A DNA stretch of 47,065 nt, taken from the NCBI GenBank assembly GCA_030610765.1, contig JAUWRD010000002.1, positions 1 through 47,065 of the forward strand, read 5' to 3'. The notes beneath the pieces were generated by a model. It was not told where the DNA came from. It was given only the letters and a program-made list of their open reading frames with translations, and did not search any database. Position 1 is the first letter of the stretch. Each line of letters begins with the position of its first letter. The DNA comes from Actinomycetes bacterium. GTDB taxonomy: Bacteria > Actinomycetota > Aquicultoria > CAJVYJ01 > JAUVQD01. Shown one piece after another: positions 1,190-22,542 of the stretch. The translations under genes and the position numbers were made by a program.

Positions 1190-1420
1190 GGTCACAATTA
1201 ATTTTATTTTCATATTTGCTCACCTCAATCCGCGAAGGCATCACATTCTAGGCAGGTCTCCTGACTTCTAGGCTCAAATGTCCTAGTCACAGTGGCGGGT
1301 CCGTGGCCGAATTTCACGGCCTTCCCTATTCTCCTAAACCGCTTAGCGCTAACTCTTTTAACGGCTTGGCACCTGGAACTTTTCTCATAACCACCGGCTT
1401 TGCCAGCGGTTATTACAACG
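1190..1420 (-). promoter_or_regulatory. Cobalamin (B12) riboswitch in the leader of the binding-protein/permease operon
   Basis: The minus strand reads ...AATAGGGAAGGCCGTGAAATTCGGCCACGGACCCGCCACTGTG...GAAGTCAGGAGACCTGCC.... This contains the GCCACTG core (plus coordinates 1290..1296) and the B12 box AGTCAGGAGACCTGCC (plus 1251..1266). A candidate -10 TACTAT lies at 1426..1431. The outer boundaries are approximate. Confidence 0.85.
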
Positions 1421-1487: not shown

Positions 1488-2318
1488 CTATTCCCGCGTG
1501 TGGTCGTGATCATGCTCGTCTCGATGGGTGTGTTCGTGTTGATGGCTCTTGTCGCCGTGCTCATGCCAGTGCTCATGAATTAGATTCACTTTTTCAAGCA
1601 ACTCTTTATCAGCCAGAAGATCGGCAGGCGAGCCGTCTGCGACAATTTTGTGATCTTGATCCAGAATCACGGCCCGGGTTGCGAATTGGGCGGCAACTTC
1701 CAGATCCTGGGTGGCTAGAACTATAGTCTTGCCTGCCTCGCCGAGTTGGTTTAGAAGATCTATAAGCCAACTTTTAGATCGTGGGTCAAGATTGTTTGTC
1801 GGCTCATCCGCTAAGAGAATCTCCGGACCCGTAGCCAGCGAGCTGGCTAAAGCCACTTTCTTTTTTTCTCCGCCACTCAATTGGTGAGGCTGCGAGTCTT
1901 TCAGGTGAATCAGATCGAGCATTTTCAATATCTCCTCAGCCCGAGCAACGGCAACGTTTGGGGCAATATCAAGTTGAAGCGGACCAAACGACACTTCCTC
2001 TAAGACAGTGGAAGAAAAAAGCTGGATATCTGAATCTTGAAAAACAAAAGCCACCCACCGACGGAAATCAGCGGCAAACTCTCCCTTTTCAAGCACTTCT
2101 TCAGTAACGGTTTGACCGAAGGCGGTAAAGCTGCCAGAGGTCGGGAAAAGCAGGCCGTCAAATATCTTGAGTAGAGTGGACTTCCCGCAACCGTTCGGCC
2201 CGAGGATTACTAGTTTCTCGGCCCTGGCTAATGACAGGTTGATCTGGTTAAGTGCAGGCCGCCCACCGGAATAGTTAAACGAAACATCTTCTAAATGAAA
2301 AACAGGATTAGCGGTCAC
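1488..2318 (-). CDS. cbiO: ECF Ni/Co transporter ATP-binding component (CbiO/NikO) with a His-rich C-terminal tail
   Basis: It has Walker A GPNGCGKST, the signature LSGGEKKK and Walker B ILLADEP. The last ~29 aa are HEHWHEHGDKSHQHEHTHRDEHDHDHTRE. It lies in an operon with the Q and M components. Confidence 0.9.
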   Translation of the reverse strand: MTANPVFHLEDVSFNYSGGRPALNQINLSLARAEKLVILGPNGCGKSTLLKIFDGLLFPTSGSFTAFGQTVTEEVLEKGEFAADFRRWVAFVFQDSDIQLFSSTVLEEVSFGPLQLDIAPNVAVARAEEILKMLDLIHLKDSQPHQLSGGEKKKVALASSLATGPEILLADEPTNNLDPRSKSWLIDLLNQLGEAGKTIVLATQDLEVAAQFATRAVILDQDHKIVADGSPADLLADKELLEKVNLIHEHWHEHGDKSHQHEHTHRDEHDHDHTRE

Positions 2319-3227
2319 TTAAAAAACCACCGAGGCAGTGACGACAACAGCCAGACAACCCATCGCCAGCCAATCAGCGCGCTTTAGAGCGGGCAGGGGC
2401 AGTGCGTTATATCCGCCAGTCCAGCCGCGAGAAATCATAGCTGTTGTAACTTGATCTCCCAGATAAACGCTTCTCTTGAATATCCACCCGATGCGCCCGG
2501 CTGCCCAGGCCCTCTCAGACTTGGCGTCGCCCGTCCTGATGGTTCGGCTTTTTCTGGCCAAGAAAACATTGTTTGTCAGCTCTGTGAGAATAAAGAGATA
2601 CCTGTACGTCATCCGCAACAGAAGAACTGCCAGCTTTGGTATGCGCAACGCCGACAAAGAAGCAAAAGCAAGATGTGGCGGCGTGGTTCGCATAACCAAC
2701 TGAGTCGCCGAAAGCATAGCGAGCGCCCTGGTGAAAAAAGTCGCGGCCATAACCAGGCCCGTGTTCGTAATAGTCAATTGCGAAGATGGCGTTAACCAGA
2801 GAATCTGATTTGGCAGATTAACTAAGAACAAAATGGGCTTCCCCGGAGTCACAAGATTTAGCGTCATCGGCAAGACAAAAGGCATTGAGAAAACAATAGT
2901 CGGGCCAAGAGTCACTCTAAGATATTTGCCGATATCCAACCGCGATATAAATGAAGTTGCCAATATTGCAACATATATCCCAAGAATAACCGGAATGGTT
3001 GTAGACAAACTTAACGCTACCAAAAGAAATAACAGGCTGGCCATTTTTATTCGCGGATCAAGTTTTTGAAGCAGACCGTCGTTTACCGGGGGCTTATTTA
3101 CCAGCAAAAACTCACTTAAGAATTTTCGCGATGTTTTTTCAGCCCGGTTGATGAAGGTCTTTCTTAACTCGCGTCTTCCATGCGACACGGCCGCTGTTTC
3201 CTCTAAAAGCCATCTCGGGGTTTTCAT
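2319..3227 (-). CDS. cbiQ: ECF transporter transmembrane (T) component, CbiQ/NikQ
   Basis: This is a 302-aa polytopic membrane protein. It is abutted by the ATPase stop/start and overlaps the M component by 4 nt. It has a CbiQ-like ARKSR loop. Confidence 0.8.
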   Translation of the reverse strand: MKTPRWLLEETAAVSHGRRELRKTFINRAEKTSRKFLSEFLLVNKPPVNDGLLQKLDPRIKMASLLFLLVALSLSTTIPVILGIYVAILATSFISRLDIGKYLRVTLGPTIVFSMPFVLPMTLNLVTPGKPILFLVNLPNQILWLTPSSQLTITNTGLVMAATFFTRALAMLSATQLVMRTTPPHLAFASLSALRIPKLAVLLLRMTYRYLFILTELTNNVFLARKSRTIRTGDAKSERAWAAGRIGWIFKRSVYLGDQVTTAMISRGWTGGYNALPLPALKRADWLAMGCLAVVVTASVVF

Positions 3228-3919
3228 GACGGCGGGCTCACTGGTCTATTTGCGAGCGTCCGCACTCGCCAACCGCTCTTCTGAAGCTGCCGCAGAATCA
3301 AAGCCGTCAATATACCTTCAACCGCTCCAAAAAAGAGCAGGTTAGCCCCCGCAACCAACGGAATAACCACATGCAACGGATATGGCGCATAGAGCGGCTG
3401 GCCGCCTGACGTCGCGATTAACGGTTGGATTCCTATAAGCACGCCCTGAAAAAGCGAGGCTACACTTAGTCCGATATATCCGGCCAGAAAGGCGCCAATG
3501 TATTTGTGAAGGCGAAGCCGACTGTTTTCTCCGGACAAGAAACGAAATATATAGAAAGCCGAAAACGGCATCAGAAAAGCGAGCGCAAAGCAATTAGCAG
3601 CCAGTGCCGTAACGCCGCCGTCTCCAAAAACAAATGCTTGAATAGCTAGAGCCGTGGAAATGGAAACCATCGCTGCCCAGGGGCCGAGCAATATGCCCAA
3701 CAAAGCGCCGCCAACCATATGGCCGGATCCGACAATCGGCACAGGTATATCGAACATCATAAGAGCAAAAGAGAACGCGCTCCCGACGGCCATCAACCCC
3801 AAATGTTTCTTTGGAAGTTCTTCTTGTACTTTGCGAAGGGCAAGATACCAAAGAGGACTGATCGCCGCGTATGTCGCAGCGTATGTTTGCGGCCCTAGAT
3901 ACCCATCAGGAATATGCAT
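3224..3919 (-). CDS. cbiM: ECF Ni/Co substrate-capture component, CbiM/NikM
   Basis: The N-terminus MHIPDGYL is the hallmark metal-ligating N-terminus of the CbiM/NikM family. The protein is a 231-aa multi-TM protein encoded immediately downstream of nikR. Confidence 0.85.
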   Translation of the reverse strand: MHIPDGYLGPQTYAATYAAISPLWYLALRKVQEELPKKHLGLMAVGSAFSFALMMFDIPVPIVGSGHMVGGALLGILLGPWAAMVSISTALAIQAFVFGDGGVTALAANCFALAFLMPFSAFYIFRFLSGENSRLRLHKYIGAFLAGYIGLSVASLFQGVLIGIQPLIATSGGQPLYAPYPLHVVIPLVAGANLLFFGAVEGILTALILRQLQKSGWRVRTLANRPVSPPS

Positions 3920-3946
3920 ATTGCTTTCCCTTTCAATAAAAAACTT

Positions 3947-4363
3947 TTATGTCAACGCTTTACCCGTTGACGTCGCCACAAGCTTGCCGTGCTTGACGCC
4001 CTTGGCGCTGATTAGTTGTTCCGCGACCCTTCTTATTTCCCCACTTTTGCCTTTTAGCACCACAGCTTCCAAGCAATTATTATCATCGAGGTGAATATGG
4101 AGCGTCGAAACCATCGCTTGACCAAAATGATGTTGGATATGGGTGAGTTGATGTGAAAGCTCTCTTTGCTCATGATCGTAGACCACAGTTACCACGCCGA
4201 CTACTTCATTTTCACTATCTTTCCACTCGTCATCGACCAGGCTGTCGCGCATTAAATCTCGCACAGCTTCAGAGCGGTTAGCATAGCCTTTTTTCTTGAT
4301 CATCTGATCAAACTTTTTTACGAGTGTCTCATCAATTGAGACACCGAAGCGCGACAAACCCAT
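3947..4363 (-). CDS. nikR: Nickel-responsive transcriptional regulator NikR (ribbon-helix-helix plus ACT-like metal domain)
   Basis: The protein aligns along its full length with E. coli NikR from memory: RFGVSIDETLVKKFD...GYANRSEAVRDLMR, then VYDHEQRELS...IQHH...LHIHLDDNNCLE, which carries the His/Cys Ni ligands. Confidence 0.9.
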   Translation of the reverse strand: MGLSRFGVSIDETLVKKFDQMIKKKGYANRSEAVRDLMRDSLVDDEWKDSENEVVGVVTVVYDHEQRELSHQLTHIQHHFGQAMVSTLHIHLDDNNCLEAVVLKGKSGEIRRVAEQLISAKGVKHGKLVATSTGKALT

Positions 4364-4759: not shown

Positions 4760-5836
4760 TTAGCTGTCCTTATTTCGAAGGAAAGTCGGAATCTCGAACT
4801 CTTCTTCCGACTCAAAAATCTTTGGCTGCAGCTTCTCTTTTGTTGTTGGGGTTGATAGTTCTAATTTCTCTTGTCTTTTCACGTGATCAAAACCAGTCGC
4901 GATAACTGTTACGCGAACCTCATCACCAAGTGAGTCATCAATGACAGCGCCAAAAATGATATTTGCGTCAGGATGAGCAGCGTTGGCAATAATCTCCGCG
5001 GCTTCGTTCACTTCGTAAAGGCCAATATCTGATGGGCCGGAGACATTTAGAAGAACGCCCTGAGCACCCTCAATTGAGGCCTCCAGAAGCGGACTTGATA
5101 TAGCGGCTTGCGCAGCTTCGGCTCCCCGGTCATCGCCTGTTGACCTTCCAATTCCCATTAGGGCCGAGCCGGCGTTTGCCATGATCGTTCTGATGTCGGC
5201 AAAATCTAGATTAATTAGCCCGGGTACAGTTATTAGATCGGTTATACCTTGCACGCCCTGACGTAGTACATCGTCGGCGACGCGAAACGCGTCAAGTATA
5301 GATGTTTTCTTTTCGGCGACCTGAAGTAGTCTGTCATTCGGTATTATTATTAGTGTATCAACTTTTTCACGCAGCTCGGCAATCCCTTGCTCGGCTTGGA
5401 GCGACCTTTTTCTACCTTCAAAACCAAACGGCCGTGTAACAACTCCAACCGTTAGCGCGCCCATTTCTTTTGCGATTTCCGCAATTACTGGTGCTCCACC
5501 GGTTCCGGTTCCGCCGCCTTTTCCAGCGGTCACAAAAACCATGTCTGCGCCTTTTATGGCTTCTTTTATTTCTTCACGGCTTTCTTCGGCGGCCGCAGAG
5601 CCAACTTCCGGATCCGCGCCAGCGCCTAAGCCTTTTGTTAATTCACGGCCAATTTGAACTTTATAATCAGCATCCGACATCAAAAGCGATTGTGCGTCTG
5701 TGTTGATCGAAATAAATTCTACGCCTTTGAGCCCAGCCTCTATCATTCGATTTACGGCGTTTGTTCCCCCGCCGCCTATCCCGGCAACCTTAATAACAGC
5801 CAGGTAGTTTGAACCGGTATCTACCACTTGCACCAC
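4760..5836 (-). CDS. ftsZ: Cell division GTPase FtsZ
   Basis: It carries the tubulin signature [14 protein letters not shown], an N-terminal [17 protein letters not shown], a GTG start and the SD AAGGAG. Confidence 0.98.
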
Positions 5837-5994
5837 TCCTTACTCTATCTAAGCCTTAAGCCTCAAGTATACCTTTATACCCGATAGACTAACCATTGAC
5901 TCAAACCTTAACGTAACGATTATTTAAATGCAAGGCATAATTTTGACAAAGGGGCTGTTGTATGTTGGTAAGTAGAACCTCTAGCGAACGCTTG

Positions 5995-6762
5995 TTATCG
6001 TTCGAGACCGCGAACGACAGGATTTGCCGGCACCGTCACATTGATGTGGACAATGCGTTCATCAGCTTCAGCAAGTATCTTCTTGATCAAGAAGTTCTTT
6101 TTCACCGCATCAAGAGAGCTGCCATAGATTATCTCTAGACCATCAGAGGTTTGAAAGCTCATATTGTCTAGCGACGGGACGGAGACCCAAGTGATCTTCG
6201 ACCGCAAATCCGGCTCTAGCCCTCTCAAGCTGGTTAGTACATCAAGCAGCTTTTTATTATTGTATTTGGATCCAACCTTAGTTTTTCTCATTCTGATGTC
6301 ATTGATTATTAGAGTCTTCTTGTCGGCCAGGGCGCGTTTCTTTTGCAGCACAAATCCCCTTCTGTCGAGAATCACTAACCCGCCGGGCTGTTTTAAGGCA
6401 ACAAAGGGCTCGCGTTCAGTAACTTGAATTACGAGACGATTCGGCAGATTCCGGGATAAGCGCGCTTTCTTTATCCAGGGATGACGCTTCAGTTTTGCTT
6501 CAATCTTGGCCGTTGATATCTTCAACAGGCTAGTGTCGGCATCAGTGTCGGCTAGCGCAACTACTTCTTTGGCGGAAAGACGTTTATTGCCTGAGACAGT
6601 CACGCTTTTTACCAGCCAGAAGGTTGAGTTCCAGACAAGGAAGCCTCCGACCACGATCGCGATTAATACAAAGACTACAGAAAATATATTCAGGGCATGC
6701 CGAGTCCTGGTGCGCCGTATCTTTTCATGTCGACGCTTCCTGGCTTCCTCAACGTGCGGCAT
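5995..6762 (-). CDS. ftsQ: Cell division protein FtsQ/DivIB (single TM plus POTRA domain)
   Basis: It has a basic N-terminus, one TM helix (IFSVVFVLIAIVVGGFLVW), then a POTRA-like VTVSGNKRLSAKEV. Its position between murB and ftsZ fits. Confidence 0.85.
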   Translation of the reverse strand: MPHVEEARKRRHEKIRRTRTRHALNIFSVVFVLIAIVVGGFLVWNSTFWLVKSVTVSGNKRLSAKEVVALADTDADTSLLKISTAKIEAKLKRHPWIKKARLSRNLPNRLVIQVTEREPFVALKQPGGLVILDRRGFVLQKKRALADKKTLIINDIRMRKTKVGSKYNNKKLLDVLTSLRGLEPDLRSKITWVSVPSLDNMSFQTSDGLEIIYGSSLDAVKKNFLIKKILAEADERIVHINVTVPANPVVRGLER

Positions 6763-7702: not shown

Positions 7703-9100
7703 TTAGGCAAGACTTTTTAGATTCTCATGCACATTGACGCCAATATCCCAAACATCTCCCGCGCCCAATGTCATTAGAGCGTCTCCGGGTCTTAAGATCG
7801 ACAAGATGTAATCCCTAATCTCAGATTTATTCGGTATATACACCAGTCTGCTGCGCGGATTATGTTTGAGGATCTCGTCAACGAGAAGTTTACCTGTAAC
7901 TCCCGGGATCGGAAGCTCCCCGGCATTATAGATGTCAGTCATAACGGTTATGTCCGCGTCACCAAAAGCCTCGCCAAACTGTTCATGCAATTGCTTCGTG
8001 CGGCTAAAACGATGAGGTTGAAAAATGCAGATAACCCTTTTCCACTGACCTCCCCTGGCAGCTTTAAGGGTAGCCATAACTTCGGTGGGATGATGCGCGT
8101 AGTCATCGATAATTGAAACGCCGCCAACTACGCCTATGAGCTGAAAACGACGCTTCACGCCCTTGAACTCCGACAAGCTTTGCGCGGCTTTTTCAAGATC
8201 CAGGTCAAGTGATTTTGCGACCGCTAAAGCCGCCATCGAATTTAGAATATTGTACTCCCCGGGGACGCTCAGCCTCACCCGCCAATCCTTGCCTCGATCC
8301 TTGTCGTAGACCGTAAACTCGGATTCGAAGTCCTTGGATATGACATCATCATAATAGATATTGTTCTCACTGGATCGACCGAAGGTTATATATTCGCTAC
8401 CGCTCTCTCTCGCGGCTTTCTCGGCAGGCGACCCGTCTCCTAATATAATAGCTTTCCCGCTCGAGCCAAGTGCAGCAAGCCAGTCTTGAAAAAGCGCCAC
8501 CAGCTTTTCAAAAGTGAGATGGTAATCCAAATGATCACTGTCTATATTAGTTACTACTGCAAGCTCGGGTTTTAAGTAAACAAGGGAGCCATCACTTTCG
8601 TCGGCCTCTACTAAACAAATTTCGCCACTTCCATATTTGGCGTTACTGCCAATATCGTTTAGCTCCCCGCCAATAAGAAATGTCGGGTCCAAGTTGGCCC
8701 GCTCAAGAATTAACGCGGTCATCGAGGTGGTCGTGGTTTTACCGTGCGTTCCGGCAATAGCGATGGTTGTATTTTTTTGGCTGCATATCTGGTTCAACAT
8801 CTGAGCTCTGGCAAGAACCTTGATATTTTCTTTTCTGGCCAACTTTAGTTCAGGATTTCTCTCAGGTATGGCCGAAGAAATGACGACCCACTCGGCTCCC
8901 CTGGAATTTTTCTCGTCGTGGCCGATAGTGATATTGGCGCCCATCTCTGAGAGAACCTTTGTGTAACGACTCTCTTTTAGATCGGAGCCACCGACTTGAT
9001 GCCCCATCTCAATAAGCACTTTGGCGATGGCGCTCATGCCGGCGCCGCCGATCCCGATAAAATGTATTCTCTTAGTCTTGGGTAATTGGTCCATCTTCAA
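7703..9100 (-). CDS. murC: UDP-N-acetylmuramate--L-alanine ligase MurC
   Basis: It has HFIGIGGAGMSAIA and the Mur ligase P-loop GTHGKTTTTSM. It sits in dcw context. Confidence 0.95.
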   Translation of the reverse strand: MKMDQLPKTKRIHFIGIGGAGMSAIAKVLIEMGHQVGGSDLKESRYTKVLSEMGANITIGHDEKNSRGAEWVVISSAIPERNPELKLARKENIKVLARAQMLNQICSQKNTTIAIAGTHGKTTTTSMTALILERANLDPTFLIGGELNDIGSNAKYGSGEICLVEADESDGSLVYLKPELAVVTNIDSDHLDYHLTFEKLVALFQDWLAALGSSGKAIILGDGSPAEKAARESGSEYITFGRSSENNIYYDDVISKDFESEFTVYDKDRGKDWRVRLSVPGEYNILNSMAALAVAKSLDLDLEKAAQSLSEFKGVKRRFQLIGVVGGVSIIDDYAHHPTEVMATLKAARGGQWKRVICIFQPHRFSRTKQLHEQFGEAFGDADITVMTDIYNAGELPIPGVTGKLLVDEILKHNPRSRLVYIPNKSEIRDYILSILRPGDALMTLGAGDVWDIGVNVHENLKSLA

Positions 9101-10239
9101 CTTAGATTCTTTCTTCCCGTTTTCGCCATAACTTTCCCAGCCGTTTCCATTACGGTTGCGGCAAGCTCGTTAGCAGCTTGCGGTCGACCCAGGATCTTTG
9201 AGCACTCAGACATTTTCTTGAGCTCCAAAGGATTATATATCAAGTCGGAAACGGCTTGCCAAAGTAGTTGGGCGTTAAGGCTTTCGTCCAAGATTATGCC
9301 AGCGGCCCCCGCTGACTCCAGACGCTTTGCGTTAGCAAGCTGATGGTTATCGGTAGCCCAAGGATATGGAACCAAAAGCGCCGGTAGACCGCTCGCGGTG
9401 AGTTCCGCGGCTGTGCTTGCCCCGGCTCTTGTCACAGCCAGGTCAGCCACGGAGTATGCAAGACCTATCTCCTCTATATATGGAAAAAGGTGATAGCTCA
9501 TACTGTCATCCGGGCGCTTTGCCTGATTCAGTTTCTCCTTGATGTCATCAAAGTCGCGAGTTCCCGCAATATGCACTATCTGAAGATCTTGAGATTGACG
9601 CAGTAAGTCATAAGCGCTGATTGCCGCCTCATTTATTTTTAGAGCACCCCGACTACCGCCAAAAATTAACAACGTCTTCTGACCGTCGGCCAACCCCAAC
9701 TTTTGTAAAGCAGTGGCTCTGTCCACCCCGAAGATATCGCGTCTAACGGGGTTGCCGACAACTTTGACGTTTTGAGCGTTATCGAGCACCTTTTGGCTAT
9801 CGTCATACGCCAGCGCTACCACGTCAACATGGCTGCTTAACTTTCTATTGGCTAAACCAAGTACGGCATTTTGTTCATGAATAACCGTTGGAATACCCTG
9901 TCGCTTGGCGCTCATAACCATGGGGAAAGACGCAAAGCCACCCATGCCGACAACAATGTTCGGGTTATGTTTCTTGATTAATCGGCGAGCCCGTATCGAG
10001 CTGATGACGAGCTTAGAAGCAAAATCTACGAATTCGAGTGAAGGCTTACGCGGTAAGCCGCGTATTGGTAGTGTTTCAAGTTGATAACCGGCTTCTGGAA
10101 CAACTTGGCACTCCAGACCGTTATCACATCCGACCCAAATAATTTCTACACCGGCTATCGCTTCTTTAAGCGCTTCTGCCAGCGCCAGTCCTGGGTAAAC
10201 GTGACCGGCTGTCCCCCCGCCGCATATCATTATTTTCAC
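9097..10239 (-). CDS. murG: Lipid II-forming UDP-GlcNAc transferase MurG
   Basis: It has an N-terminal GGGTAGHVYP and is GT28-family-like throughout. Confidence 0.95.
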   Translation of the reverse strand: MKIMICGGGTAGHVYPGLALAEALKEAIAGVEIIWVGCDNGLECQVVPEAGYQLETLPIRGLPRKPSLEFVDFASKLVISSIRARRLIKKHNPNIVVGMGGFASFPMVMSAKRQGIPTVIHEQNAVLGLANRKLSSHVDVVALAYDDSQKVLDNAQNVKVVGNPVRRDIFGVDRATALQKLGLADGQKTLLIFGGSRGALKINEAAISAYDLLRQSQDLQIVHIAGTRDFDDIKEKLNQAKRPDDSMSYHLFPYIEEIGLAYSVADLAVTRAGASTAAELTASGLPALLVPYPWATDNHQLANAKRLESAGAAGIILDESLNAQLLWQAVSDLIYNPLELKKMSECSKILGRPQAANELAATVMETAGKVMAKTGRKNLS

Positions 10240-11362
10240 GACTAACTCCGCGTTTCTTCTTAGTTGTAAGTGTCAGGTTAAGCAAAATACCGATGCTGGC
10301 CAAAGTTAAAACTAGTGATGTTCCACCATAGCTTATGAGCGGCAATGTAATTCCGGTGATCGGAAGCATTCCGGTTACAGCGCCCATATTGATAACCGCT
10401 TGACTCAAGATCATAGCGCCGATTCCGCCACCGATCAATCGTCCAAAGGGATCATTACATCTACGGACCGCGTACCAGATCAGTAAGGAAAAAACTAAGA
10501 ATATGAAAACGACAGAAAGAGTTCCCGCAAGCCCGAGCTCTTCTCCAATGATCGCGAAAATAAAATCTGTATATGGAGCAGGTAGATACCCGAACTTTTG
10601 ACGACTGAGACCTAATCCAACGCCTTGCAGGCCACCGCTGCCGAAAGCCATGAGGGATTGAAGATATTGAAAGCCATTTTTGAGCGGGTCGGCTTCCGGA
10701 TCAAGAAAAGCCAGCCAGCGTTTGCGCCGGTACGGCTCTACCCAAATCAAAGCAAAAACAGCGGCACTGCCGCCCACCCCCAGCGGAATCAACTCTCGAA
10801 ATCTAATGCCCGAAAGAAACAAGAGCGCGAAGACGCTGATAAGAATAATCAGAAGTGTGCCCAAATCGGGCTGAGCCAGAATAAGAGCGGAAATAATCAG
10901 CAGTGGAATACCCAAAGGTTTCGCCAGCCCTATAAGGCTTTCGTTCTTCCATTTTTTTCTTGTTAAGATGTCGGCTGTATATAGGATAAAAGCTAGCTTT
11001 GCCATCTCAGACGGTTGAAAGCTAAATTCGCCAACGCCTATCCAGCGTTGGGCACCGCCCGCTACTTGTCCGACGCCAGGCACAAAAACCAATATCAGTG
11101 AGACTATCGAGAGCGCCAAGCCAGCGGGTGAAAGTTTTCTTAACAATCGGTAGTCAACGCGAGAGGCGAGATAAAGCAAGATCATGCCCGCCGCAATGTA
11201 CGCAAATTGCCTCCAGAGAAAGAAGAAACTATCTTTATGGCCCAGATAGGCAACGACAGAACTAGCGCTAGCTATCATGACCATGCCTATGAACAACAAG
11301 ACCAGGGTCACACTCAATATTAAATAATAAAGCGCGGGTTTGGGTTGCTTAACTTTTGCCAT
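10166..11362 (-). CDS. ftsW: SEDS-family peptidoglycan polymerase FtsW
   Basis: This is a 398-aa polytopic membrane protein with SEDS-like motifs (QPSEMAKL, GSGG...GLG). Its basic tail overlaps the murG start by 74 nt. Confidence 0.9.
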   Translation of the reverse strand: MAKVKQPKPALYYLILSVTLVLLFIGMVMIASASSVVAYLGHKDSFFFLWRQFAYIAAGMILLYLASRVDYRLLRKLSPAGLALSIVSLILVFVPGVGQVAGGAQRWIGVGEFSFQPSEMAKLAFILYTADILTRKKWKNESLIGLAKPLGIPLLIISALILAQPDLGTLLIILISVFALLFLSGIRFRELIPLGVGGSAAVFALIWVEPYRRKRWLAFLDPEADPLKNGFQYLQSLMAFGSGGLQGVGLGLSRQKFGYLPAPYTDFIFAIIGEELGLAGTLSVVFIFLVFSLLIWYAVRRCNDPFGRLIGGGIGAMILSQAVINMGAVTGMLPITGITLPLISYGGTSLVLTLASIGILLNLTLTTKKKRGVSRENNDMRRGDSRSRLPRTGAGRSA

Positions 11363-13761: not shown

Positions 13762-15206
13762 TCTCTCTCTTTAGACAACTCTTCCACAACAGATTCCAGA
13801 CCGGCCACTCGCGATCCTTTGACCAGAACGACATCGCCCGGCACCAAACGAGTCAACAACCAGCGAGCGACATCATCTTTTGACTGAAACCATTTTACGT
13901 CCTGCTCGGGTAGTCCACTCTGAACCGCTGACTTCGCGATATCCTCGGTTTCCCTTCCAACTGCCGCCAGGCGATCAATGCCAACAGACGCAATCTTTCT
14001 GCCGACTTCTTTGTGTGCCGCGATCGAATCTTCGCCTAGTTCGGCCATCGCCCCTAAAACAGCGTATCGATTGGTATCGGTTTTTATCTTCGCCACCGTT
14101 TCCAGCGCCTCTGCCATTGATGACGGATTGGCGTTATACGCGTCATTTACAATTATGAAACCTAGCCCGCTTCTCACAATCTTCAACCGCATATCACCGA
14201 GTTCAACTTGACTCAAACCGTCAGCGATCGCGCGATCATCGACTCCTATAATCTTAGCCGCTGCTATGGCCGCTAATGCGTTAATAATATTATGTCGACC
14301 TGGAACGGGGAGCTTAAAGATAGGACCCTCGGAACCATTAACGACCAGACGCCAGCTCGGCGAGGCCATATCGTCATAGCTGATCTCAACAGCTCTATAA
14401 TCAGCATTACTTGAGAGCCCAAAGGTAACCACTTTAGCCTTAGTTCTCTCTCTCAGATAGTCGAGCCATTCATCATCTGCGTTCAGTATGGCATAACCAT
14501 CCGCCGGCAAGGCCTCAATGAGCTCTGCTTTGGCTCGAGCGATCTTCTCCTCCGAACCGAGCAACCCGATGTGGGCCTGGCCAATATTCGTTATGATACC
14601 AATATCAGGCTCAGTAATGGCCGCTAGTGAAGCTATTTGGCCAACTCCACGCATGCCCATCTCCACTATTAATAGCTCAGTCTCTAGTTTAGCTTTAGTG
14701 ATAGTCATCGGGACGCCAATTTCGTTATTATTATTTTTGGCCGACGCTGTGAGGTTAAAGGTTTTATTGGTTATTGAAGACAAAATATCTTTTGTGGAGG
14801 TCTTGCCCGTGCTTCCGGAAATACCTACTACTTTGGCCCGAAGCCGCCTTCTGACAAGGTGCGCGATGCTGTTTAGGGCTTGGCGCGTGTCTCCAACTAA
14901 GAATACTAGATTTGTCCCTCTTAGCCACGTTTTAACGTCCCCGCTATTTTGCTCCGTCAAAAATCCTACCGCACCGTCAGCCATAGCTTGATCGATAAAC
15001 TCGTGGGCGTTAAAATTCAGGCCCTTTAAGGGAATGAATAGATCTCCCTCATGTAAACATCTAGAATCCGCCGATATTGAAGAAACGAGCGACTCGGGAT
15101 CACCTGACAATAGCCGTGCCCCACTCGCCTCTTGAATATCTTTGGCTTTAATTGGTACCACTAAGCATCTCCTCAAGCGCAACTCTTGCCACGACGCCGT
15201 CATCAA
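13758..15206 (-). CDS. murF: UDP-MurNAc-tripeptide--D-Ala-D-Ala ligase MurF
   Basis: It has the Mur ligase P-loop GISGSTGKTSTKD, DAYNANPSSM and a MurF-like C-terminus. The N-terminal ~18 aa of the ORF overlap murE and may not be translated. Confidence 0.93.
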   Translation of the reverse strand: MMTASWQELRLRRCLVVPIKAKDIQEASGARLLSGDPESLVSSISADSRCLHEGDLFIPLKGLNFNAHEFIDQAMADGAVGFLTEQNSGDVKTWLRGTNLVFLVGDTRQALNSIAHLVRRRLRAKVVGISGSTGKTSTKDILSSITNKTFNLTASAKNNNNEIGVPMTITKAKLETELLIVEMGMRGVGQIASLAAITEPDIGIITNIGQAHIGLLGSEEKIARAKAELIEALPADGYAILNADDEWLDYLRERTKAKVVTFGLSSNADYRAVEISYDDMASPSWRLVVNGSEGPIFKLPVPGRHNIINALAAIAAAKIIGVDDRAIADGLSQVELGDMRLKIVRSGLGFIIVNDAYNANPSSMAEALETVAKIKTDTNRYAVLGAMAELGEDSIAAHKEVGRKIASVGIDRLAAVGRETEDIAKSAVQSGLPEQDVKWFQSKDDVARWLLTRLVPGDVVLVKGSRVAGLESVVEELSKERE

Positions 15207-16623
15207 AAGAGATTACCTTGTCTCCAAGTATCTGGTAGTCTTCATGCCCTTTTCCGGCAATGACAATAACGTCACCTTTTTGCGCTGCTTTGATCGCCAT
15301 CTTAATTGCCTTTTCTCGTTCGACTTCTACGTTTAGTTCTACAGCTGCCTCTTCTGGAATCCCTCGAGTAATGTCTCTAATGATTTCTTCCGGCTCTTCA
15401 CTCCGCGGGTTGTCTGATGTCACTATGGCAATATCGCTTAAGCGGGCGGCGATTGCGCCCATTTCCGGTCTTTTCCCACGATCACGATCGCCCCCGCACC
15501 CGAAAACCGTGATCAGTCTTTTGGTCCCGGTTAAATTTTTCGCCGTCGACAAGACTTTTTCCAGGCCATCCGGTGTATGCGCGTAATCAACAAAAACCTG
15601 GAAATTCTGGCCACAAACTATTTTTTCAAAGCGCCCGGGTACCCCCGCGACATCCCAAATGCCCTCAGCCACGCTTTTTTCCGATGCCCCCAATTCAAAC
15701 GCTGAAACTCCGGCTAATGCCAGGTTAACAATATTGAAATCTCCCACCATTCGACTTTTGACCGCCAGGCTAGCGGCCGAGCTGTTGAGCGTGAATGAGG
15801 TCTCCACAGCTGAAGACTTAACTTGCGCCAGCTGATAATCCGCGTCACGCTCCCCAAAAGTAACCGTGTCATCTTTATCACACATATCGACTAGTCGTCG
15901 CCCGAAAACATCATCGGTATTTATTATTCTCACGCCGGAACCAAAAGTAGGATCTGTAAATAGACGGGCCTTTGATAAAAAATAGTTCTCTATATTACTG
16001 TGGAAATCAAGATGGTCGCGGCTTAGGTTTGTGAAAACCCGGCCGGCGAACCGACACTGATCAACCCTCGCTAAATGAAGAGCATGCGAAGATACTTCCA
16101 TTATTGCGATCTGCACGCCATCGGAGACCATCTGCGCTAATATGCGTTGTAAATCTAACGACTCCGGCGTCGTTCTCTCGGCATGATAACACTTGTTGTC
16201 GATCTTGTATTCAATCGTGCCTATCAGCCCGGTCTTAAAACCAGCATGCTTAAAAATTGATTCCATCAAATACGCGATCGTTGTTTTTCCGTTTGTTCCG
16301 GTAACGCCAACCAGACTCAATTTTCTACTTGGCTGACCAAAGAATATATCTGAGACTTGCGCCAAAGCCTTACGCGCATTTGGAACTTCTAGTTGTGCTA
16401 ACGACCCGGCCAGGTCGGGTCGCGCCCGCTCCACCACAGCGGCAACCGCGCCCTTATCTAAGGCTTGGTCAATGAATTTATGGCCGTCTACTTGAGTCCC
16501 GGGGATAGCAACGAACAGCGAGCCTGGCCGGGTTTGGCGTGAGTCATAGACGATATCTTTGATATTGATATCGTCCACGGGCTTTTCTATATCCATTGCC
16601 GATGCCAGCTCAGCGATTTTCAC
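15148..16623 (-). CDS. murE: UDP-MurNAc-L-Ala-D-Glu--2,6-diaminopimelate ligase MurE
   Basis: It has GVTGTNGKTT. The DNPR motif (TSDNPRSEEP) is associated with meso-DAP-adding MurE enzymes. Confidence 0.95.
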   Translation of the reverse strand: MKIAELASAMDIEKPVDDINIKDIVYDSRQTRPGSLFVAIPGTQVDGHKFIDQALDKGAVAAVVERARPDLAGSLAQLEVPNARKALAQVSDIFFGQPSRKLSLVGVTGTNGKTTIAYLMESIFKHAGFKTGLIGTIEYKIDNKCYHAERTTPESLDLQRILAQMVSDGVQIAIMEVSSHALHLARVDQCRFAGRVFTNLSRDHLDFHSNIENYFLSKARLFTDPTFGSGVRIINTDDVFGRRLVDMCDKDDTVTFGERDADYQLAQVKSSAVETSFTLNSSAASLAVKSRMVGDFNIVNLALAGVSAFELGASEKSVAEGIWDVAGVPGRFEKIVCGQNFQVFVDYAHTPDGLEKVLSTAKNLTGTKRLITVFGCGGDRDRGKRPEMGAIAARLSDIAIVTSDNPRSEEPEEIIRDITRGIPEEAAVELNVEVEREKAIKMAIKAAQKGDVIVIAGKGHEDYQILGDKVISFDDGVVARVALEEMLSGTN

Positions 16624-16667: not shown

Positions 16668-17537
16668 TTAAGGTTGCACTCGCAACCTCTTCAACGCGTA
16701 TTCGCCAACCGCTGAAAAAACGGGGGCCGCGACTACGCCGCCATAGATAGCGCCTTGTGGTTCGTCTATTGCAACCAAAATTGTCAGTTTCGGATTATCC
16801 GCCGGTAGAAAGCCGATAAAAGATGAAATATATTTTCCGGGATCATAGCCCCTGGCATCAACTTGAGGTTTCTGCGCAGTGCCGGTCTTACCTGCTACTT
16901 TGTATCCAGAAACTTTCGCGTTTCCACCTGTGCCGTTTTCAACCGCCTCGGTCATGATCTCGGCCATTGATGCCGCGGTTGCCTTAGAGATTACTTGCTT
17001 GCTGCCCCCAAGGTCTTTCCTGGTGAACCGAGGTGAAATGAGTTTTCCCTCTGCCGCGACAACATTAATAGCTCGAACCGATTCCAGGCTAGTTGCCGAT
17101 AACCCTTGCCCGAACGGAATGTTTGCGATAGAACTGGCAGACCATATATTTGTCGGAGGTGTGTAACCTTGGCCTTCGTCGGGCAATTCTGCTCCTGTGC
17201 CTTTATTTAGCCCAAAACGTTCAATGTATTGATAGATTCTTTCCGGACCTAGTGACTGCCCGATAACAACCGCTCCTATATTACTCGAGCGGGTGACAAT
17301 TTCTTTAAAAGAAAATATCTCGGCTCCTCTTTCATGAGCTTCATGTATTGTATGTCCGCCCACTTGGATTCTTCCCGGTAAATTCAGTAAAGTACCTGGT
17401 GAATATAGCTTTTCTTCAAGCGCCGCCGACGCGGTGACTATTTTCATCGTCGAGCCGGGTTCGTAAACATCGGAAATGGCTCTATTCCTAAAGAGCTTGG
17501 GGTCTGTCTCTGAGAACTTGTTTAAGTTATATGTCGG
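16668..17537 (-). CDS. ftsI: Class B penicillin-binding protein FtsI/PBP2B, C-terminal transpeptidase part (same frame as the upstream fragment, separated only by a TAA)
   Basis: My own translation of 17448..17537 gives PTYNLNKFSETDPKLFRNRAISDVYEPGST. It joins the track ORF (MKIVTASAALEE...) to give the SxxK motif STMK. KTGT is present downstream (AGKTGTA). Confidence 0.85.
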   Translation of the reverse strand, partial: PTYNLNKFSETDPKLFRNRAISDVYEPGSTMKIVTASAALEEKLYSPGTLLNLPGRIQVGGHTIHEAHERGAEIFSFKEIVTRSSNIGAVVIGQSLGPERIYQYIERFGLNKGTGAELPDEGQGYTPPTNIWSASSIANIPFGQGLSATSLESVRAINVVAAEGKLISPRFTRKDLGGSKQVISKATAASMAEIMTEAVENGTGGNAKVSGYKVAGKTGTAQKPQVDARGYDPGKYISSFIGFLPADNPKLTILVAIDEPQGAIYGGVVAAPVFSAVGEYALKRLRVQP

Positions 17538-18362
17538 TTAGTTTGCGAGTGCGTATACTTCGCCGGTCTGACTATCCATAACAACAATCCAGCCAGCAGT
17601 TGCCTTCCATTTATTGACAGCTCTTCTAAGCTCTACCTGAGCCTTATATTGAATCTCCTTGTCTAGCGTTAAAATCAAGTCGCGACCGTGTGTGGGAGGG
17701 AGATACTTGTACTCTCCTCCTGGTATAGGTCTGCCAACTAAGTCTTGCTCCATTATCAGTTGGCCCGGTTTGCCTTTTAAATACGAGTCAAAACTTTGTT
17801 CAACGCCATTCAATCCATCGTTGTCCATTCCAGCAAAGCCAATTACATGCGCGGCAATTGCCTTTCCGGGGTAAAAACGCTTACTTTCAGGAATAAAACC
17901 TATCCCCTCGATATTGAGGTTTTTAATTTTAGCGATAACGTTCTTGTCTACTTTTCGTTTGATGTATACGAAACCGAGCTTCATCTTCAATTTTTTATAA
18001 AGCGACCTTCTGCTCAGCTTGAGAATGGGCGCTAAGCGCCTGGCCACAACCCTTTTCTGGTAACCCTTGATCTGCAGGGGATTCGCGAAAACGGTATCTT
18101 TGTCGAGACTTATCGATAATATCTCACGATTTCTGTCGTATATGATGCCTCGCTCAGGCACCAACTTAATCGTCGTTAATCTCTGGTTCTGGGCCATTTG
18201 ATCGAACTTTTCCGCTTTTACAGCTTGGATTGAAACCAAGCGGACGCCAATGGTAAGTAAAAAGAATATTAGTAAAAGAAATAAAAAAGGAAACCTGTCT
18301 CTAGGCTTCCTTTTCCGTCTATTTTTCTTCCGGGTTCCGGGGAAGAAAGCTATCTTCTTCAC
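17538..18362 (-). CDS. ftsI: Class B penicillin-binding protein FtsI/PBP2B, N-terminal TM anchor plus dimerisation-domain part, ending at an in-frame TAA
   Basis: It has a basic N-terminus, one TM helix, a PBP dimer-domain-like sequence (RGIIYDRN, HVIGF) and ends ...SQTGEVYALAN-TAA. This is the position where FtsI homologues continue with xP(S/T)(Y/F)NPN. Confidence 0.85.
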   Translation of the reverse strand: MKKIAFFPGTRKKNRRKRKPRDRFPFLFLLLIFFLLTIGVRLVSIQAVKAEKFDQMAQNQRLTTIKLVPERGIIYDRNREILSISLDKDTVFANPLQIKGYQKRVVARRLAPILKLSRRSLYKKLKMKLGFVYIKRKVDKNVIAKIKNLNIEGIGFIPESKRFYPGKAIAAHVIGFAGMDNDGLNGVEQSFDSYLKGKPGQLIMEQDLVGRPIPGGEYKYLPPTHGRDLILTLDKEIQYKAQVELRRAVNKWKATAGWIVVMDSQTGEVYALAN

Positions 18363-18803
18363 CTACCTAGCCAGAAGGCTTATCTTAGCCAAAACTGTAT
18401 TCACTTTTTCCTGACCTTTCGGGGTATGTGGTGCCTTAGACGCTGTCACAAGGTCGGCCGGCAGCACAATGTATTTTATTTCCGTCGGCTCTACCATCCC
18501 TAAATCAATCCTGGCTAACCGCCCCAATCGTGATGGAGACTTCAGCAGCATTTTTTGCGTCTCAAGGTCTTTGCTTATCCGTGCCTCCTCTTTTATTTCT
18601 ACTTTAAGGCGCGCAATCTCTATCCCATTTTGAGCAACTAATGCCTGCTGGTAGACATGGGCAAATGCTGCTAAACCAACAAAGACTAAAACAAAAATAA
18701 AAATCCTAAAACTGAACTGTTTCCTTTTAGTCCGGGTTTTTTCCGGCACAGGATACGCAAAGTCATCTGTTATTTCAGAATATATATTTCTAGCTGCTTC
18801 CAT
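18363..18803 (-). CDS. ftsL: FtsL-like cell division protein (bitopic, coiled coil)
   Basis: It has a single TM (FRIFIFVLVFVGLAAFAHV) followed by a coiled-coil-like segment. Its position between rsmH and ftsI fits. Confidence 0.7.
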   Translation of the reverse strand: MEAARNIYSEITDDFAYPVPEKTRTKRKQFSFRIFIFVLVFVGLAAFAHVYQQALVAQNGIEIARLKVEIKEEARISKDLETQKMLLKSPSRLGRLARIDLGMVEPTEIKYIVLPADLVTASKAPHTPKGQEKVNTVLAKISLLAR

Positions 18804-20478: not shown

Positions 20479-22542
20479 TTAGAGCTCGATCAGGTTGCCC
20501 GGCCAATCCTTAAAGCTGTTGTTATGAGAAAAGAAAATGATTTGGCGTGTCGCCGCCAGTTTGAGAACAATATCTCGGGCGGCTTTGAAACGATCATCAT
20601 CAAAATAGACAAGGGGGTCGTCAAGAATTAGTGGCGGCTTTGCTTCTCCGCTAATCAAGTCAGCCGCGGCTAAACGGACAGCGAAATACAACTGGTCGGC
20701 AGTGGCAGTGCTTAAGGCGTCAGGGCTTATCGTTACTTCCTCATCGAAAACTGTCAGCGTGAGGTTGCCTTCCAGGCCCACCTTACTATGTCGACCGCCT
20801 GTCAAAGCGCTTAAAAGCTCTGAAGCCGCGCCGGCGATCTGAGGAGCTACTTCGCCAGAGATTTCAGCCGCTATTTCTAATATCTCCTGAGCGGCTAGCG
20901 AAAGAGCTTTGGCGTGCCGTTTTGAGCCCTCTAGTTGATCAGATATGTAATTGAGCTCGGATGCTAAGTCAACGATAGATCGCCCTGAAATCTCGGTGTG
21001 GGAAGACAATCGACCAATCAATGTGTCATGTGTCTGACGTAATGTTGCCACCTCTGGGCTAAGATATGACACCTCGCGCTCGTGAGTAAATATCTCTTCT
21101 GTCGACAGATCAGCTTTTGTAGCTTTCTTGAGCTGAAGTTCGAGCGAATGTGTTTGATCAAAAAGATTATCAAATTCCTTGGATAGCTCTTCAAGGGAAC
21201 TGCCCTCCAACATAATAGAATCTGCATATTCAATATTGCCTAACTCCTTGGCGAGGCTTTCGCACTTGTTTTGCTGTGCCAGGAAACTCTCTAAGCCGGC
21301 GGCGCCAACCTTTGACAACTCTTCGTTTATCTCGCCTGTCAACCGCTCGACCTCTTCTTTCAGGTAGCTCTCCAAATCCTCGGCAGTGCTTGTCCTTGAT
21401 TTCAGCAACTTTAGCCCAGCAGCAGCCCCGACCAAACCAAGAATAATTGCCGCTACCCCAAGAAAAACCTGGCTTAAAACGACTAGGATAATTCCGACCA
21501 ACAACGCCGCTACCGCCGGCACAAAAGCGAAAATCGCATACTTCTTTTTAGTTTCCGCTTCCGTTCGACCATCGTCAGCGGCCACGCCCATCTTGATCTG
21601 TTTCTCTTTTAATATCTCGGCCTTGTGTTTCAACGCGGCGGCATCGACTGCCGATATCTCTTTGTAGTTGTCCAGGTGCTCCATCTCTTTATTGATTTCG
21701 CCGAGCCTCTCCCGGTCAGCTTTTAAGCGCTCTATCTTCATGCGTAGTTTCTTGCGCCCGTCGCTCAACTTGTCAAGCTCTACTTCCAAGACGCGTCTAG
21801 CCTGAACAGCATCTATTAATTCCTTGACCAGCTTAAGCCGGGCGGTTTTTTTTACCAATAACTCCTGGGTTTCCTCAAGCTCTGCCGCCCATTGATCGCG
21901 CTGACTTTTTATCTGCTCGGCCTGAGCCATCTCACGCCTGATGTCTACCTCTTGAGCCAGAAGGGCTCCAATTTGGCCGCCCTCACCTTTCTGGGCAATC
22001 GTCCCGGCTAATCGTTTATATTTTTCTTTTAGAACCTTTTGGGCTTTGGTTATCGAGCCGCCGGCGCTTCCGACTAAAAGAGATTCAACTCTGGCTCGAA
22101 GCGCGGGTTCGATTCCGACCAGATCGGGCGCTAACTCGCCGGCGCGCACAAAGACTGTATTTAAGAAAGTTTCAGCTTTGTCCAATCCGAGGTGTCGTCC
22201 GACAAGCCCTTGCACCTTAGTGGGGCCTTTGGCTTGAACTTCCCCTCCTTGCAGCTGCACTAAGCTGACTTCACCTTTAGCTAAATCTCGAACAAGCGAC
22301 CAGACCGTCTTGTCTGGAAGCTCGTATTCAACTGTAACAACGCAGCTCGGATTGGCATTCCCCCAATTTTTCCACCGCTCATAGCCTTTGCGTTCACCGA
22401 AAAAAGCAGTCTTTAACGCTGATTGAATAGTGCTCTTGCCGCTCTCATTAGCCCCAATTATCAGATTCAGACCCGGGTTAAGCTCAACTCTGGACTCTTG
22501 GAAGCTCCCGAAGTTATTTAGTTCAATAGCGGTTATGATCAT
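20479..22542 (-). CDS. Rad50/SbcC-like AAA ATPase (YhaN/SbcE-like) with a central transmembrane hairpin
   Basis: It has an N-terminal Walker A (IIGANESGKST), long Glu/Lys/Leu-rich coiled-coil regions and a C-terminal Walker B/D-loop (PPLILDDPLVYFDD). Residues ~335-379 (YAIFAFVPAVAALLVGIILVVLSQVFLGVAAIILGLVGAAAGL) form two hydrophobic helices. It overlaps the upstream phosphoesterase gene by 4 nt. Confidence 0.8.
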   Translation of the reverse strand: MIITAIELNNFGSFQESRVELNPGLNLIIGANESGKSTIQSALKTAFFGERKGYERWKNWGNANPSCVVTVEYELPDKTVWSLVRDLAKGEVSLVQLQGGEVQAKGPTKVQGLVGRHLGLDKAETFLNTVFVRAGELAPDLVGIEPALRARVESLLVGSAGGSITKAQKVLKEKYKRLAGTIAQKGEGGQIGALLAQEVDIRREMAQAEQIKSQRDQWAAELEETQELLVKKTARLKLVKELIDAVQARRVLEVELDKLSDGRKKLRMKIERLKADRERLGEINKEMEHLDNYKEISAVDAAALKHKAEILKEKQIKMGVAADDGRTEAETKKKYAIFAFVPAVAALLVGIILVVLSQVFLGVAAIILGLVGAAAGLKLLKSRTSTAEDLESYLKEEVERLTGEINEELSKVGAAGLESFLAQQNKCESLAKELGNIEYADSIMLEGSSLEELSKEFDNLFDQTHSLELQLKKATKADLSTEEIFTHEREVSYLSPEVATLRQTHDTLIGRLSSHTEISGRSIVDLASELNYISDQLEGSKRHAKALSLAAQEILEIAAEISGEVAPQIAGAASELLSALTGGRHSKVGLEGNLTLTVFDEEVTISPDALSTATADQLYFAVRLAAADLISGEAKPPLILDDPLVYFDDDRFKAARDIVLKLAATRQIIFFSHNNSFKDWPGNLIEL

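Follow-up and report, generated by a model that had tools for sequence, protein, structure and literature searches.

An in-frame TAA codon private to one strain lineage interrupts ftsI within the dcw cluster of an uncultured actinobacterium

Genes for the cell division transpeptidase FtsI have been annotated as pseudogenes inside the division and cell wall (dcw) clusters of Streptomyces abyssalis, Pseudofrankia asymbiotica, Hymenobacter polaris and H. sedentarius; alternative class B penicillin-binding proteins (bPBPs) exist in these bacteria, and the authors who described them caution that some of the pseudogene cases may be sequencing errors (PMC12516126). In B. subtilis and C. difficile, too, alternative bPBPs can sustain division while the canonical divisome bPBP lacks catalytic activity, although that protein itself has to be present, and databases hold thousands of proteins that consist of the pedestal only (PMC12516126). 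Here we describe an interrupted ftsI in a stretch of 47,065 nucleotides from an Actinomycetes bacterium (assembly GCA_030610765.1, contig JAUWRD010000002.1, positions 1 to 47,065, the whole contig; hereafter the window). The gene is a single class B PBP frame broken at codon 275 by one TAA that is private to one strain lineage, and we consider it probable that the stop is a real and very young null allele of an ordinary FtsI orthologue in an uncultured actinobacterium of deep-sea sediment.

The window locus resembles the Streptomyces, Pseudofrankia and Hymenobacter cases in having a frameshift or premature stop in the ftsI of the dcw cluster while FtsW is kept. It differs from them in two respects. 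Those are isolate genomes in which alternative pairs of bPBP and SEDS protein have been identified, whereas here 47 kb of a metagenomic contig were available; and the lesion in the window is private to one strain lineage, with intact conspecifics. The case is thus a further example of an interrupted ftsI within a dcw cluster, and stands apart mainly because the sequences of conspecifics date the lesion as lineage-private and recent. By analogy with B. subtilis PBP2B and the C. difficile bPBP, the 274-residue product of the window gene, an anchor plus a pedestal, could in principle act without transpeptidase activity. Unlike that truncated product, however, the proteins used in those two systems were full-length, with a point mutation in the active site.

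Translation of positions 18362 to 16668 (minus strand, as for all features of ftsI given below) yields one class B PBP frame of 564 sense codons, with matches to the Pfam families PBP_dimer and Transpeptidase and a terminal TAA (whole frame 16668..18362). Its sole internal stop is the TAA of codon 275 (17538..17540), where the plus strand has T at 17538 in the window and A in relatives; the two halves noticed in the preliminary description do share one frame. The N-terminal open reading frame (ORF; 17538..18362) has a GTG start and encodes 274 residues, the last of which read SQTGEVYALAN before the stop. It comprises a basic cytoplasmic tail, the membrane anchor and the pedestal, extends ~20 residues into the transpeptidase domain, and is the sole product expected if the TAA terminates translation. 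The 30 in-frame codons that follow (codons 276-305; 17448..17537) are open and homologous to the start of the transpeptidase domain. They translate to PTYNLNKFSETDPKLFRNRAISDVYEPGST and lead straight into Met306, the first residue of a 259-residue downstream ORF (16668..17447) that carries the transpeptidase domain and lacks the nucleophilic Ser, the anchor and a signal peptide. With the 30 codons, the Pfam Transpeptidase match reaches back to profile position 20, and from Met306 alone it begins at position 46; these codons are therefore homologous coding sequence and not a spacer. Intact homologues span 93-100% of the joined protein, and one reaches 99% identity, so the two ORFs are not a chance pairing.

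Joining the halves restores the active site, as had been proposed. The catalytic SxxK motif, S304-T-M-K307 (17442..17453), straddles Met306, its Met being the start of the downstream ORF, and lies opposite S307-T-V-K of E. coli FtsI. The SxN motif (S359-S-N, residues 359-361; 17280..17288) and the KTG(T) motif (K492-T-G-T, residues 492-495; 16878..16889) are intact and lie opposite E. coli SSN and KTGT, respectively.

Architecture, motifs, synteny and similarity together identify the gene as an FtsI orthologue. After the basic tail, anchor residues at about 24-40 read FPFLFLLLIFFLLTIGV (taken from the translation and not from a transmembrane predictor). The pedestal matches PBP_dimer (PF03717) at residues 68-213 (E = 4.7e-18), and the 289 codons past the stop match the transpeptidase family PF00905 (E = 5.4e-63). 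BLASTP aligned the joined protein end to end with E. coli K-12 FtsI at 32% identity, placing S304 opposite S307 of STVK. The best solved relatives are chains of FtsI/PBP3 and SpoVD (~300 bits, E about 6e-89, residues 25-564). Chains of MrdA reach ~135 bits only, so the joined protein is nearer to FtsI than to the MrdA/PBP2 elongation enzymes. None of the NCBIfam equivalog cut-offs was reached, the best model being SpoVD with 458 bits against a cut-off of 688, and the subfamily assignment therefore rests on synteny and on the scores against solved chains. The gene shares with FtsI/PBP3 of E. coli (b0084) and P. aeruginosa (PBP3 structures 8bh1 and 3pbn) the succession of anchor, pedestal and transpeptidase, the SxxK, SxN and KTG motifs, the gene order ftsL-ftsI-murE and the presence of ftsW in the cluster. 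Unlike in E. coli, the frame is broken by TAA at codon 275. In the BLASTP alignment this stop falls opposite the Ser of AMAN-S-PSYNPN in E. coli, in agreement with the earlier suggestion that an ordinary residue has been replaced. As written, the ftsI frame is not an uninterrupted ORF and does not encode the full-length enzyme.

Nor do the two pieces appear able to make up an enzyme between them. Codons 276-305 contain no ATG, GTG or TTG, the sole start-like codon being an ATT at 296, and no Shine-Dalgarno-like sequence was found ahead of the Met306 ATG. Because the SxxK motif spans Met306, a product initiated there would lack the nucleophile, Ser304. We rejected a two-piece enzyme on these grounds, namely the missing canonical start, Shine-Dalgarno-like sequence, Ser304 and export signal. 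The preliminary description had likewise reported no start codon between the stop and Met306 and had argued that the downstream half cannot work alone, and both points stand.

To place the stop among relatives, we used the fact that FtsI of this species forms one protein cluster at 90% identity and compared the DNA of every member. The comparison set consists of five related loci at 94-99.4% DNA identity, which belong to this or a sister species and come from four independent samples. Codon 275 is TAT in all five: in the Loki's Castle sediment metagenome SDBV01 (L001/L002; 99.35% identity to the window ftsI), in a South China Sea cold seep (L004; 98.2%), in the Actinomycetia metagenome-assembled genome (MAG) GCA_023128315 (L006; 98.7%), in the cold-seep MAG CSMAG_679 (L005; 94%) and in ENA ERZ4220937 (L027; 98.2%). 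CSMAG_679 is a GTDB species representative and, in a scan of genome contigs, the nearest one, at 95% amino acid identity. The codon carried by the closest genomes, which the preliminary description had asked for, is therefore TAT (Tyr), and because all five related loci read TAT the stop is a lineage-private third-position T>A transversion from TAT (Tyr275) to TAA. Papers that cite the related records place the population in deep-sea sediment or cold seeps.

The only other carrier that we found is L003, a Logan contig of run SRR14865926 that is 100% identical to the window over the part of ftsI that it covers and reads TAA at codon 275. The window and L003 also share, to the exclusion of the other loci, a synonymous GCG>GCA change in Ala271 (17550, minus strand), 12 nucleotides upstream of the stop, which tags the TAA haplotype. 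Apart from site 17550, the flanks of the stop in the window match conspecifics exactly. A recombination or chimera with a relative that has GAA (Glu) at this codon was rejected, since such relatives are only ~63% identical. A metagenome-wide scan for the 47 nucleotides surrounding the stop, in which the three variable sites were set to N, yielded SDBV01027353 (the locus L002) and nothing else. A look-up of the lineage-specific FtsL variant returned only L003, so that the TAA lineage is known from two assemblies, and a literature search for SRR14865926 gave no match. Across 123 aligned homologues, the column of codon 275 is flanked by the near-invariant motifs A-x-A-[SN] and P-x-[FY]-[ND] and is itself a variable sense position, occupied in 123/123 sequences and never a gap (T 33, E 23, V 22, Y 19, A 10, M 4).

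The remainder of the gene is undamaged. Its lesions amount to one substitution with no net indels, the SxxK, SxN and KTG motifs are intact, and the ratio of non-synonymous to synonymous change (pN/pS) against relatives is 0.07-0.13 in the N-terminal half and 0.09-0.33 in the C-terminal half. Judged by these patterns, the rest of ftsI has been under strong purifying selection, and the gene was functional until very recently. An old, decaying pseudogene was rejected on account of the single lesion, the absence of net indels, the low pN/pS and the intact motifs; if the gene is a pseudogene, it is only an incipient one.

On our preferred reading, a young null allele in one strain lineage, ribosomes would stop at codon 275 and release a membrane-anchored pedestal fragment of 274 residues. 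The transpeptidase domain would be made only by trace near-cognate readthrough, and any product re-initiated at Met306 would be cytoplasmic and devoid of Ser304. The allele would then be null or, at best, a pedestal-only hypomorph, with no recoding mechanism involved. In the slow-growing sediment population it would most probably be a segregating variant, mildly to strongly deleterious, or an incipient pseudogene, and its carriers would either depend on another transpeptidase or not persist.

How far the allele itself can be trusted depends largely on L003 and on the quality of the window consensus. L003 (SRR14865926_441741; 4,403 bp) is 99.91% identical to the window and carries both the TAA and the linked GCA, along with nearly all other private alleles that the window has in these 4.4 kb. 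The two sequences differ at four sites, all in an sbcC-like gene, two of them synonymous and two conservative, and at each of the four L003 has the allele of other strains. Two distinguishable consensus genotypes therefore carry the stop. Since the TAA recurs in a separate Logan assembly that departs from the window at those four positions, a mere glitch of the assembler is unlikely. The window itself shows no net frameshift against 19 kb of relatives, and its 91 private substitutions are mostly synonymous (among those classified, roughly two thirds are synonymous and one third non-synonymous, with one nonsense). For these reasons it reads as a real lineage in a clean short-read consensus and not as an error-ridden sequence. 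Private substitutions cluster at two places in the sbcC-like gene (20479-22542, minus strand), with 4 changes in 4 nucleotides at 20962-20965 and 3 changes in 7 nucleotides at 21040-21046. It is chiefly in the latter cluster that the window and L003 differ, and both clusters look like multi-nucleotide events or short recombination patches.

The most serious competitor to a young null allele is that the true codon is TAT and that the A arose from an error in the polymerase chain reaction (PCR) or in the library, from damage to a fragment, or from a rare or faulty k-mer path that entered the consensus of the metagenome-assembled contig. An error of this kind would fit the finding that all other assemblies of the species read TAT and that one substitution alone has struck a gene which is essential and under strong constraint. 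The lineage has been seen in the window assembly and one run only, so the two may share reads. Against it stand the choice of the allele by two different assemblers whose consensus sequences differ at four other sites, the freedom of the window from other signs of consensus error, with no frameshifts and mostly synonymous private changes, and the length of the 47-kb contig, which implies coverage that would outvote a random read error. The Logan build reportedly keeps k-mers seen at least twice; if that rule holds, the allele would be present in two or more reads of SRR14865926. We judge an artefact unlikely, if by no means negligible.

Several observations weigh against a young null allele and should be set beside this evidence. 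L003 ends 2 nucleotides past the TAA (L003:4399-4403; window 17536-17540), as a single-fragment or halved-coverage k-mer path would. Its end lies one base before window position 17535, the third position of Pro276, which is polymorphic (CCG/CCA) in the species, and this suggests a graph branch, or thin or split coverage at a polymorphic or problematic site or from a single fragment. If its reads are shared with the window, L003 rules out an assembler glitch but leaves errors in the library or PCR untouched. Most walled bacteria cannot do without FtsI, and because of this and of the strong purifying selection in the species a null allele at consensus level is unlikely a priori. Finally, no second PBP was found among the 43 ORFs of the 47-kb window. 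On balance we consider it fairly likely that the allele is real, taking all readings with a real allele together against a read-level artefact, and within these a young null allele remains the probable explanation. Of the explanations that the preliminary description had listed, an error confined to the assembler has become unlikely in view of the second assembly, and readthrough of a conserved or programmed kind finds no support in the comparisons below; a true nonsense allele and a read-level artefact are left.

Public data do contain interrupted ftsI calls that stem from poor assemblies, which adds to the case for an artefact. In a distant relative at ~46% amino acid identity, the dcw cluster lies on a 490-kb contig (L029:1-9029; ENA ERZ25039503 contig_14636) in which rsmH is called in two pieces (243 + 72 residues), ftsI as a transpeptidase-only ORF of 342 residues and murE at 229 residues. 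Judged from these gene calls, L029 is probably an indel-rich long-read assembly. Short FtsI calls on long contigs of distant relatives might have pointed to a natural split of ftsI, but that of L029, the one inspected, is uninformative, the rsmH and murE calls being broken too. As L029 illustrates, truncated FtsI proteins in public sets look in many cases like artefacts.

If the allele is real, a useful FtsI might still be made by reading through the UAA, by means of a suppressor tRNA encoded elsewhere or of a near-cognate tRNA-Tyr, -Gln or -Lys in a slowly dividing cell. The tolerance of the position speaks for this: homologues have T, E, V, Y, A or M there, so any inserted amino acid should work, and the part of the gene beyond the stop keeps its frame and is undamaged. 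Decoding of UAA by the near-cognate tRNA-Tyr would bring back the original residue, and the stop is followed by a C, a context in which E. coli terminates less well. Set against these points, UAA is the most efficiently terminated stop, and its basal readthrough in bacteria is about 1e-4 to 1e-3. It is also the preferred terminator here: the 42 other genes of the window use TAA 24 times, TAG 9 times and TGA 9 times, and with an efficient ochre suppressor most genes would be misread. None of the five related loci has the stop, so nothing has evolved around it. There is, moreover, no stimulatory structure past the stop, since 141 nucleotides around it fold no better than shuffled sequence (-23.2 kcal/mol, where the shuffles average -22.7; z = -0.15), and no Rfam family matched at the stop. 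ARAGORN found no UUA anticodon, and hence no suppressor tRNA, in the 47-kb window. We consider functional readthrough highly improbable.

The single tRNA call that ARAGORN made in the window, a doubtful tRNA-Gln(ttg) of 94 nucleotides at 3243-3336 (minus strand), lies inside the cbiM coding region, close to where this overlaps cbiQ. Too long for a class I tRNA, located within an ORF and without an Rfam tRNA match at the gathering threshold, it is most likely spurious.

Other forms of recoding were rejected. Codon reassignment is excluded by the use of TAA as the organism's main terminator (24/42): the TAA ends of window genes match the ends of their Pfam domains and homologues, and they include those of ftsZ (4760-5836) and the binding-protein gene (168-1157), the two examples that the preliminary description had cited for the same view. 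A +1 or -1 frameshift bypass is excluded by the downstream domain lying in the zero frame and by stops that both shifted frames meet within a few codons. Conserved or programmed recoding is contradicted by the presence of the stop in no related locus but L003 and by the lack of a structure or Rfam element. Systems of programmed recoding, such as selenocysteine UGA, the prfB +1 frameshift and viral or phage readthrough, share with the window an in-frame stop in an essential, otherwise intact gene. They are, however, conserved among orthologues, whereas the window stop is absent from relatives, and they have a signal (a selenocysteine insertion sequence, a Shine-Dalgarno sequence with a slippery site, or a downstream structure), whereas the window UAA has no structure. 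Real or artefact, the finding has no bearing on the genetic code or on recoding.

A second in-frame stop was found in one of the related loci that read TAT at codon 275. L027 (ENA ERZ4220937 NODE_88276) is a 1,195-bp SPAdes contig with a k-mer coverage of 2.1, in which codon 331 has changed from AGA (Arg) to TGA (NLPG*IQVGGH), 27 codons past the catalytic Ser. In the window this codon (17370..17372, minus strand) is an unmutated AGA. The nine other private changes of L027 are mostly synonymous (seven, against two non-synonymous), so most of its divergence is real; the stop may be an error, because coverage is only ~2x. Across 17 genes and the five related loci, Y275* and R331* are the only in-frame stops, and both fall in the transpeptidase domain of ftsI.

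The two stops may be a hint that the species tolerates losing the transpeptidase half when the pedestal is kept. FtsI truncation past the pedestal would then recur in the species, with the anchored pedestal activating FtsW and another PBP or an L,D-transpeptidase performing the cross-linking. In keeping with this, the pedestal is spared by Y275* (window and L003) as well as by R331* (L027), each of which comes shortly after it, and no other gene among the 17 has a stop in any related locus. Yet purifying selection acts as strongly on the transpeptidase half as on the pedestal half, so the former is not dispensable in the long term. The L027 stop may be an error at its ~2x coverage, and the apparent enrichment of stops in ftsI is partly ascertainment, only ftsI fragments having been fished for. 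In addition, ~20 residues of an unfinished transpeptidase fold would remain on the truncated protein, whose stability may be poor. A tolerated truncation of this kind therefore seems quite improbable, and a single young null allele is the reading that we retain.

The interrupted gene sits in a complete and co-directional dcw cluster with the order mraZ-rsmH-ftsL-ftsI-murE-murF-mraY-murD-ftsW-murG-murC-murB-ftsQ-ftsZ. Upstream of ftsI, the stop codon of ftsL (DivIC family; 18363..18803, minus strand) abuts the GTG start. Downstream, at a distance of 44 nucleotides, follows an intact murE (15148..16623, minus strand), for which the gene tables of L001 and L004 list Mur ligase domains and which has an in-frame stop in none of the related loci. 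The gene for the cognate partner of FtsI, the SEDS glycosyltransferase FtsW, is intact (10166..11362, minus strand; PF01098, 362 bits). No other interrupted gene was found in the 47-kb window. Scans for promoters and terminators around ftsI gave counts at chance level.

Further features of the cluster concern gene starts and gene order. The longest murG ORF (9097-10239, minus strand) has a GTG start, encodes 380 residues and overlaps the end of ftsW (10166-11362) by 74 nucleotides. The true start of murG is probably downstream of 10239; the gene is called at 361 residues in L005 and at 282 in L004, where the short call reflects the choice of start site and not a lesion, no in-frame stop being present there. 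At the end of the cluster, ftsQ is followed directly by ftsZ, without ftsA between them (4760-6762, minus strand).

On one side, the cluster is flanked by nikR-cbiMQO and a riboswitch-controlled binding-protein gene. The nikR-cbiM-cbiQ-cbiO genes, a nickel/cobalt uptake operon of the energy-coupling factor (ECF) type, lie downstream of ftsZ at the dcw cluster end (1488-4363, minus strand). A cobalamin riboswitch (RF00174, 70 bits; 1234-1391, minus strand) lies between the cbiO-like ABC ATPase gene and the binding-protein gene at 168-1157, and because it adjoins that gene, the binding protein is probably a B12-regulated, BtuF-like uptake component. The other flank contains sbcCD-like genes, trkA, rph, murI, gatCA, ppdK, glyQS, ndk and copA; upstream of mraZ are the sbcD/sbcC-like nuclease genes and an HD-domain gene.

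Should the stop prove an artefact, it would show that single nonsense codons in metagenome-assembled contigs need to be checked against conspecific assemblies before a pseudogene is called. Should the truncation instead be tolerated because the pedestal suffices, it would be a natural, population-level counterpart of the dispensability of divisome bPBP catalysis shown in the laboratory. If, as we think probable, the lesion is a real null allele, it would bear on how weakly selection purges lethal or near-lethal alleles in a wild, very slow-growing sediment population or, alternatively, would point to redundancy of peptidoglycan transpeptidases in a poorly known actinobacterial lineage.

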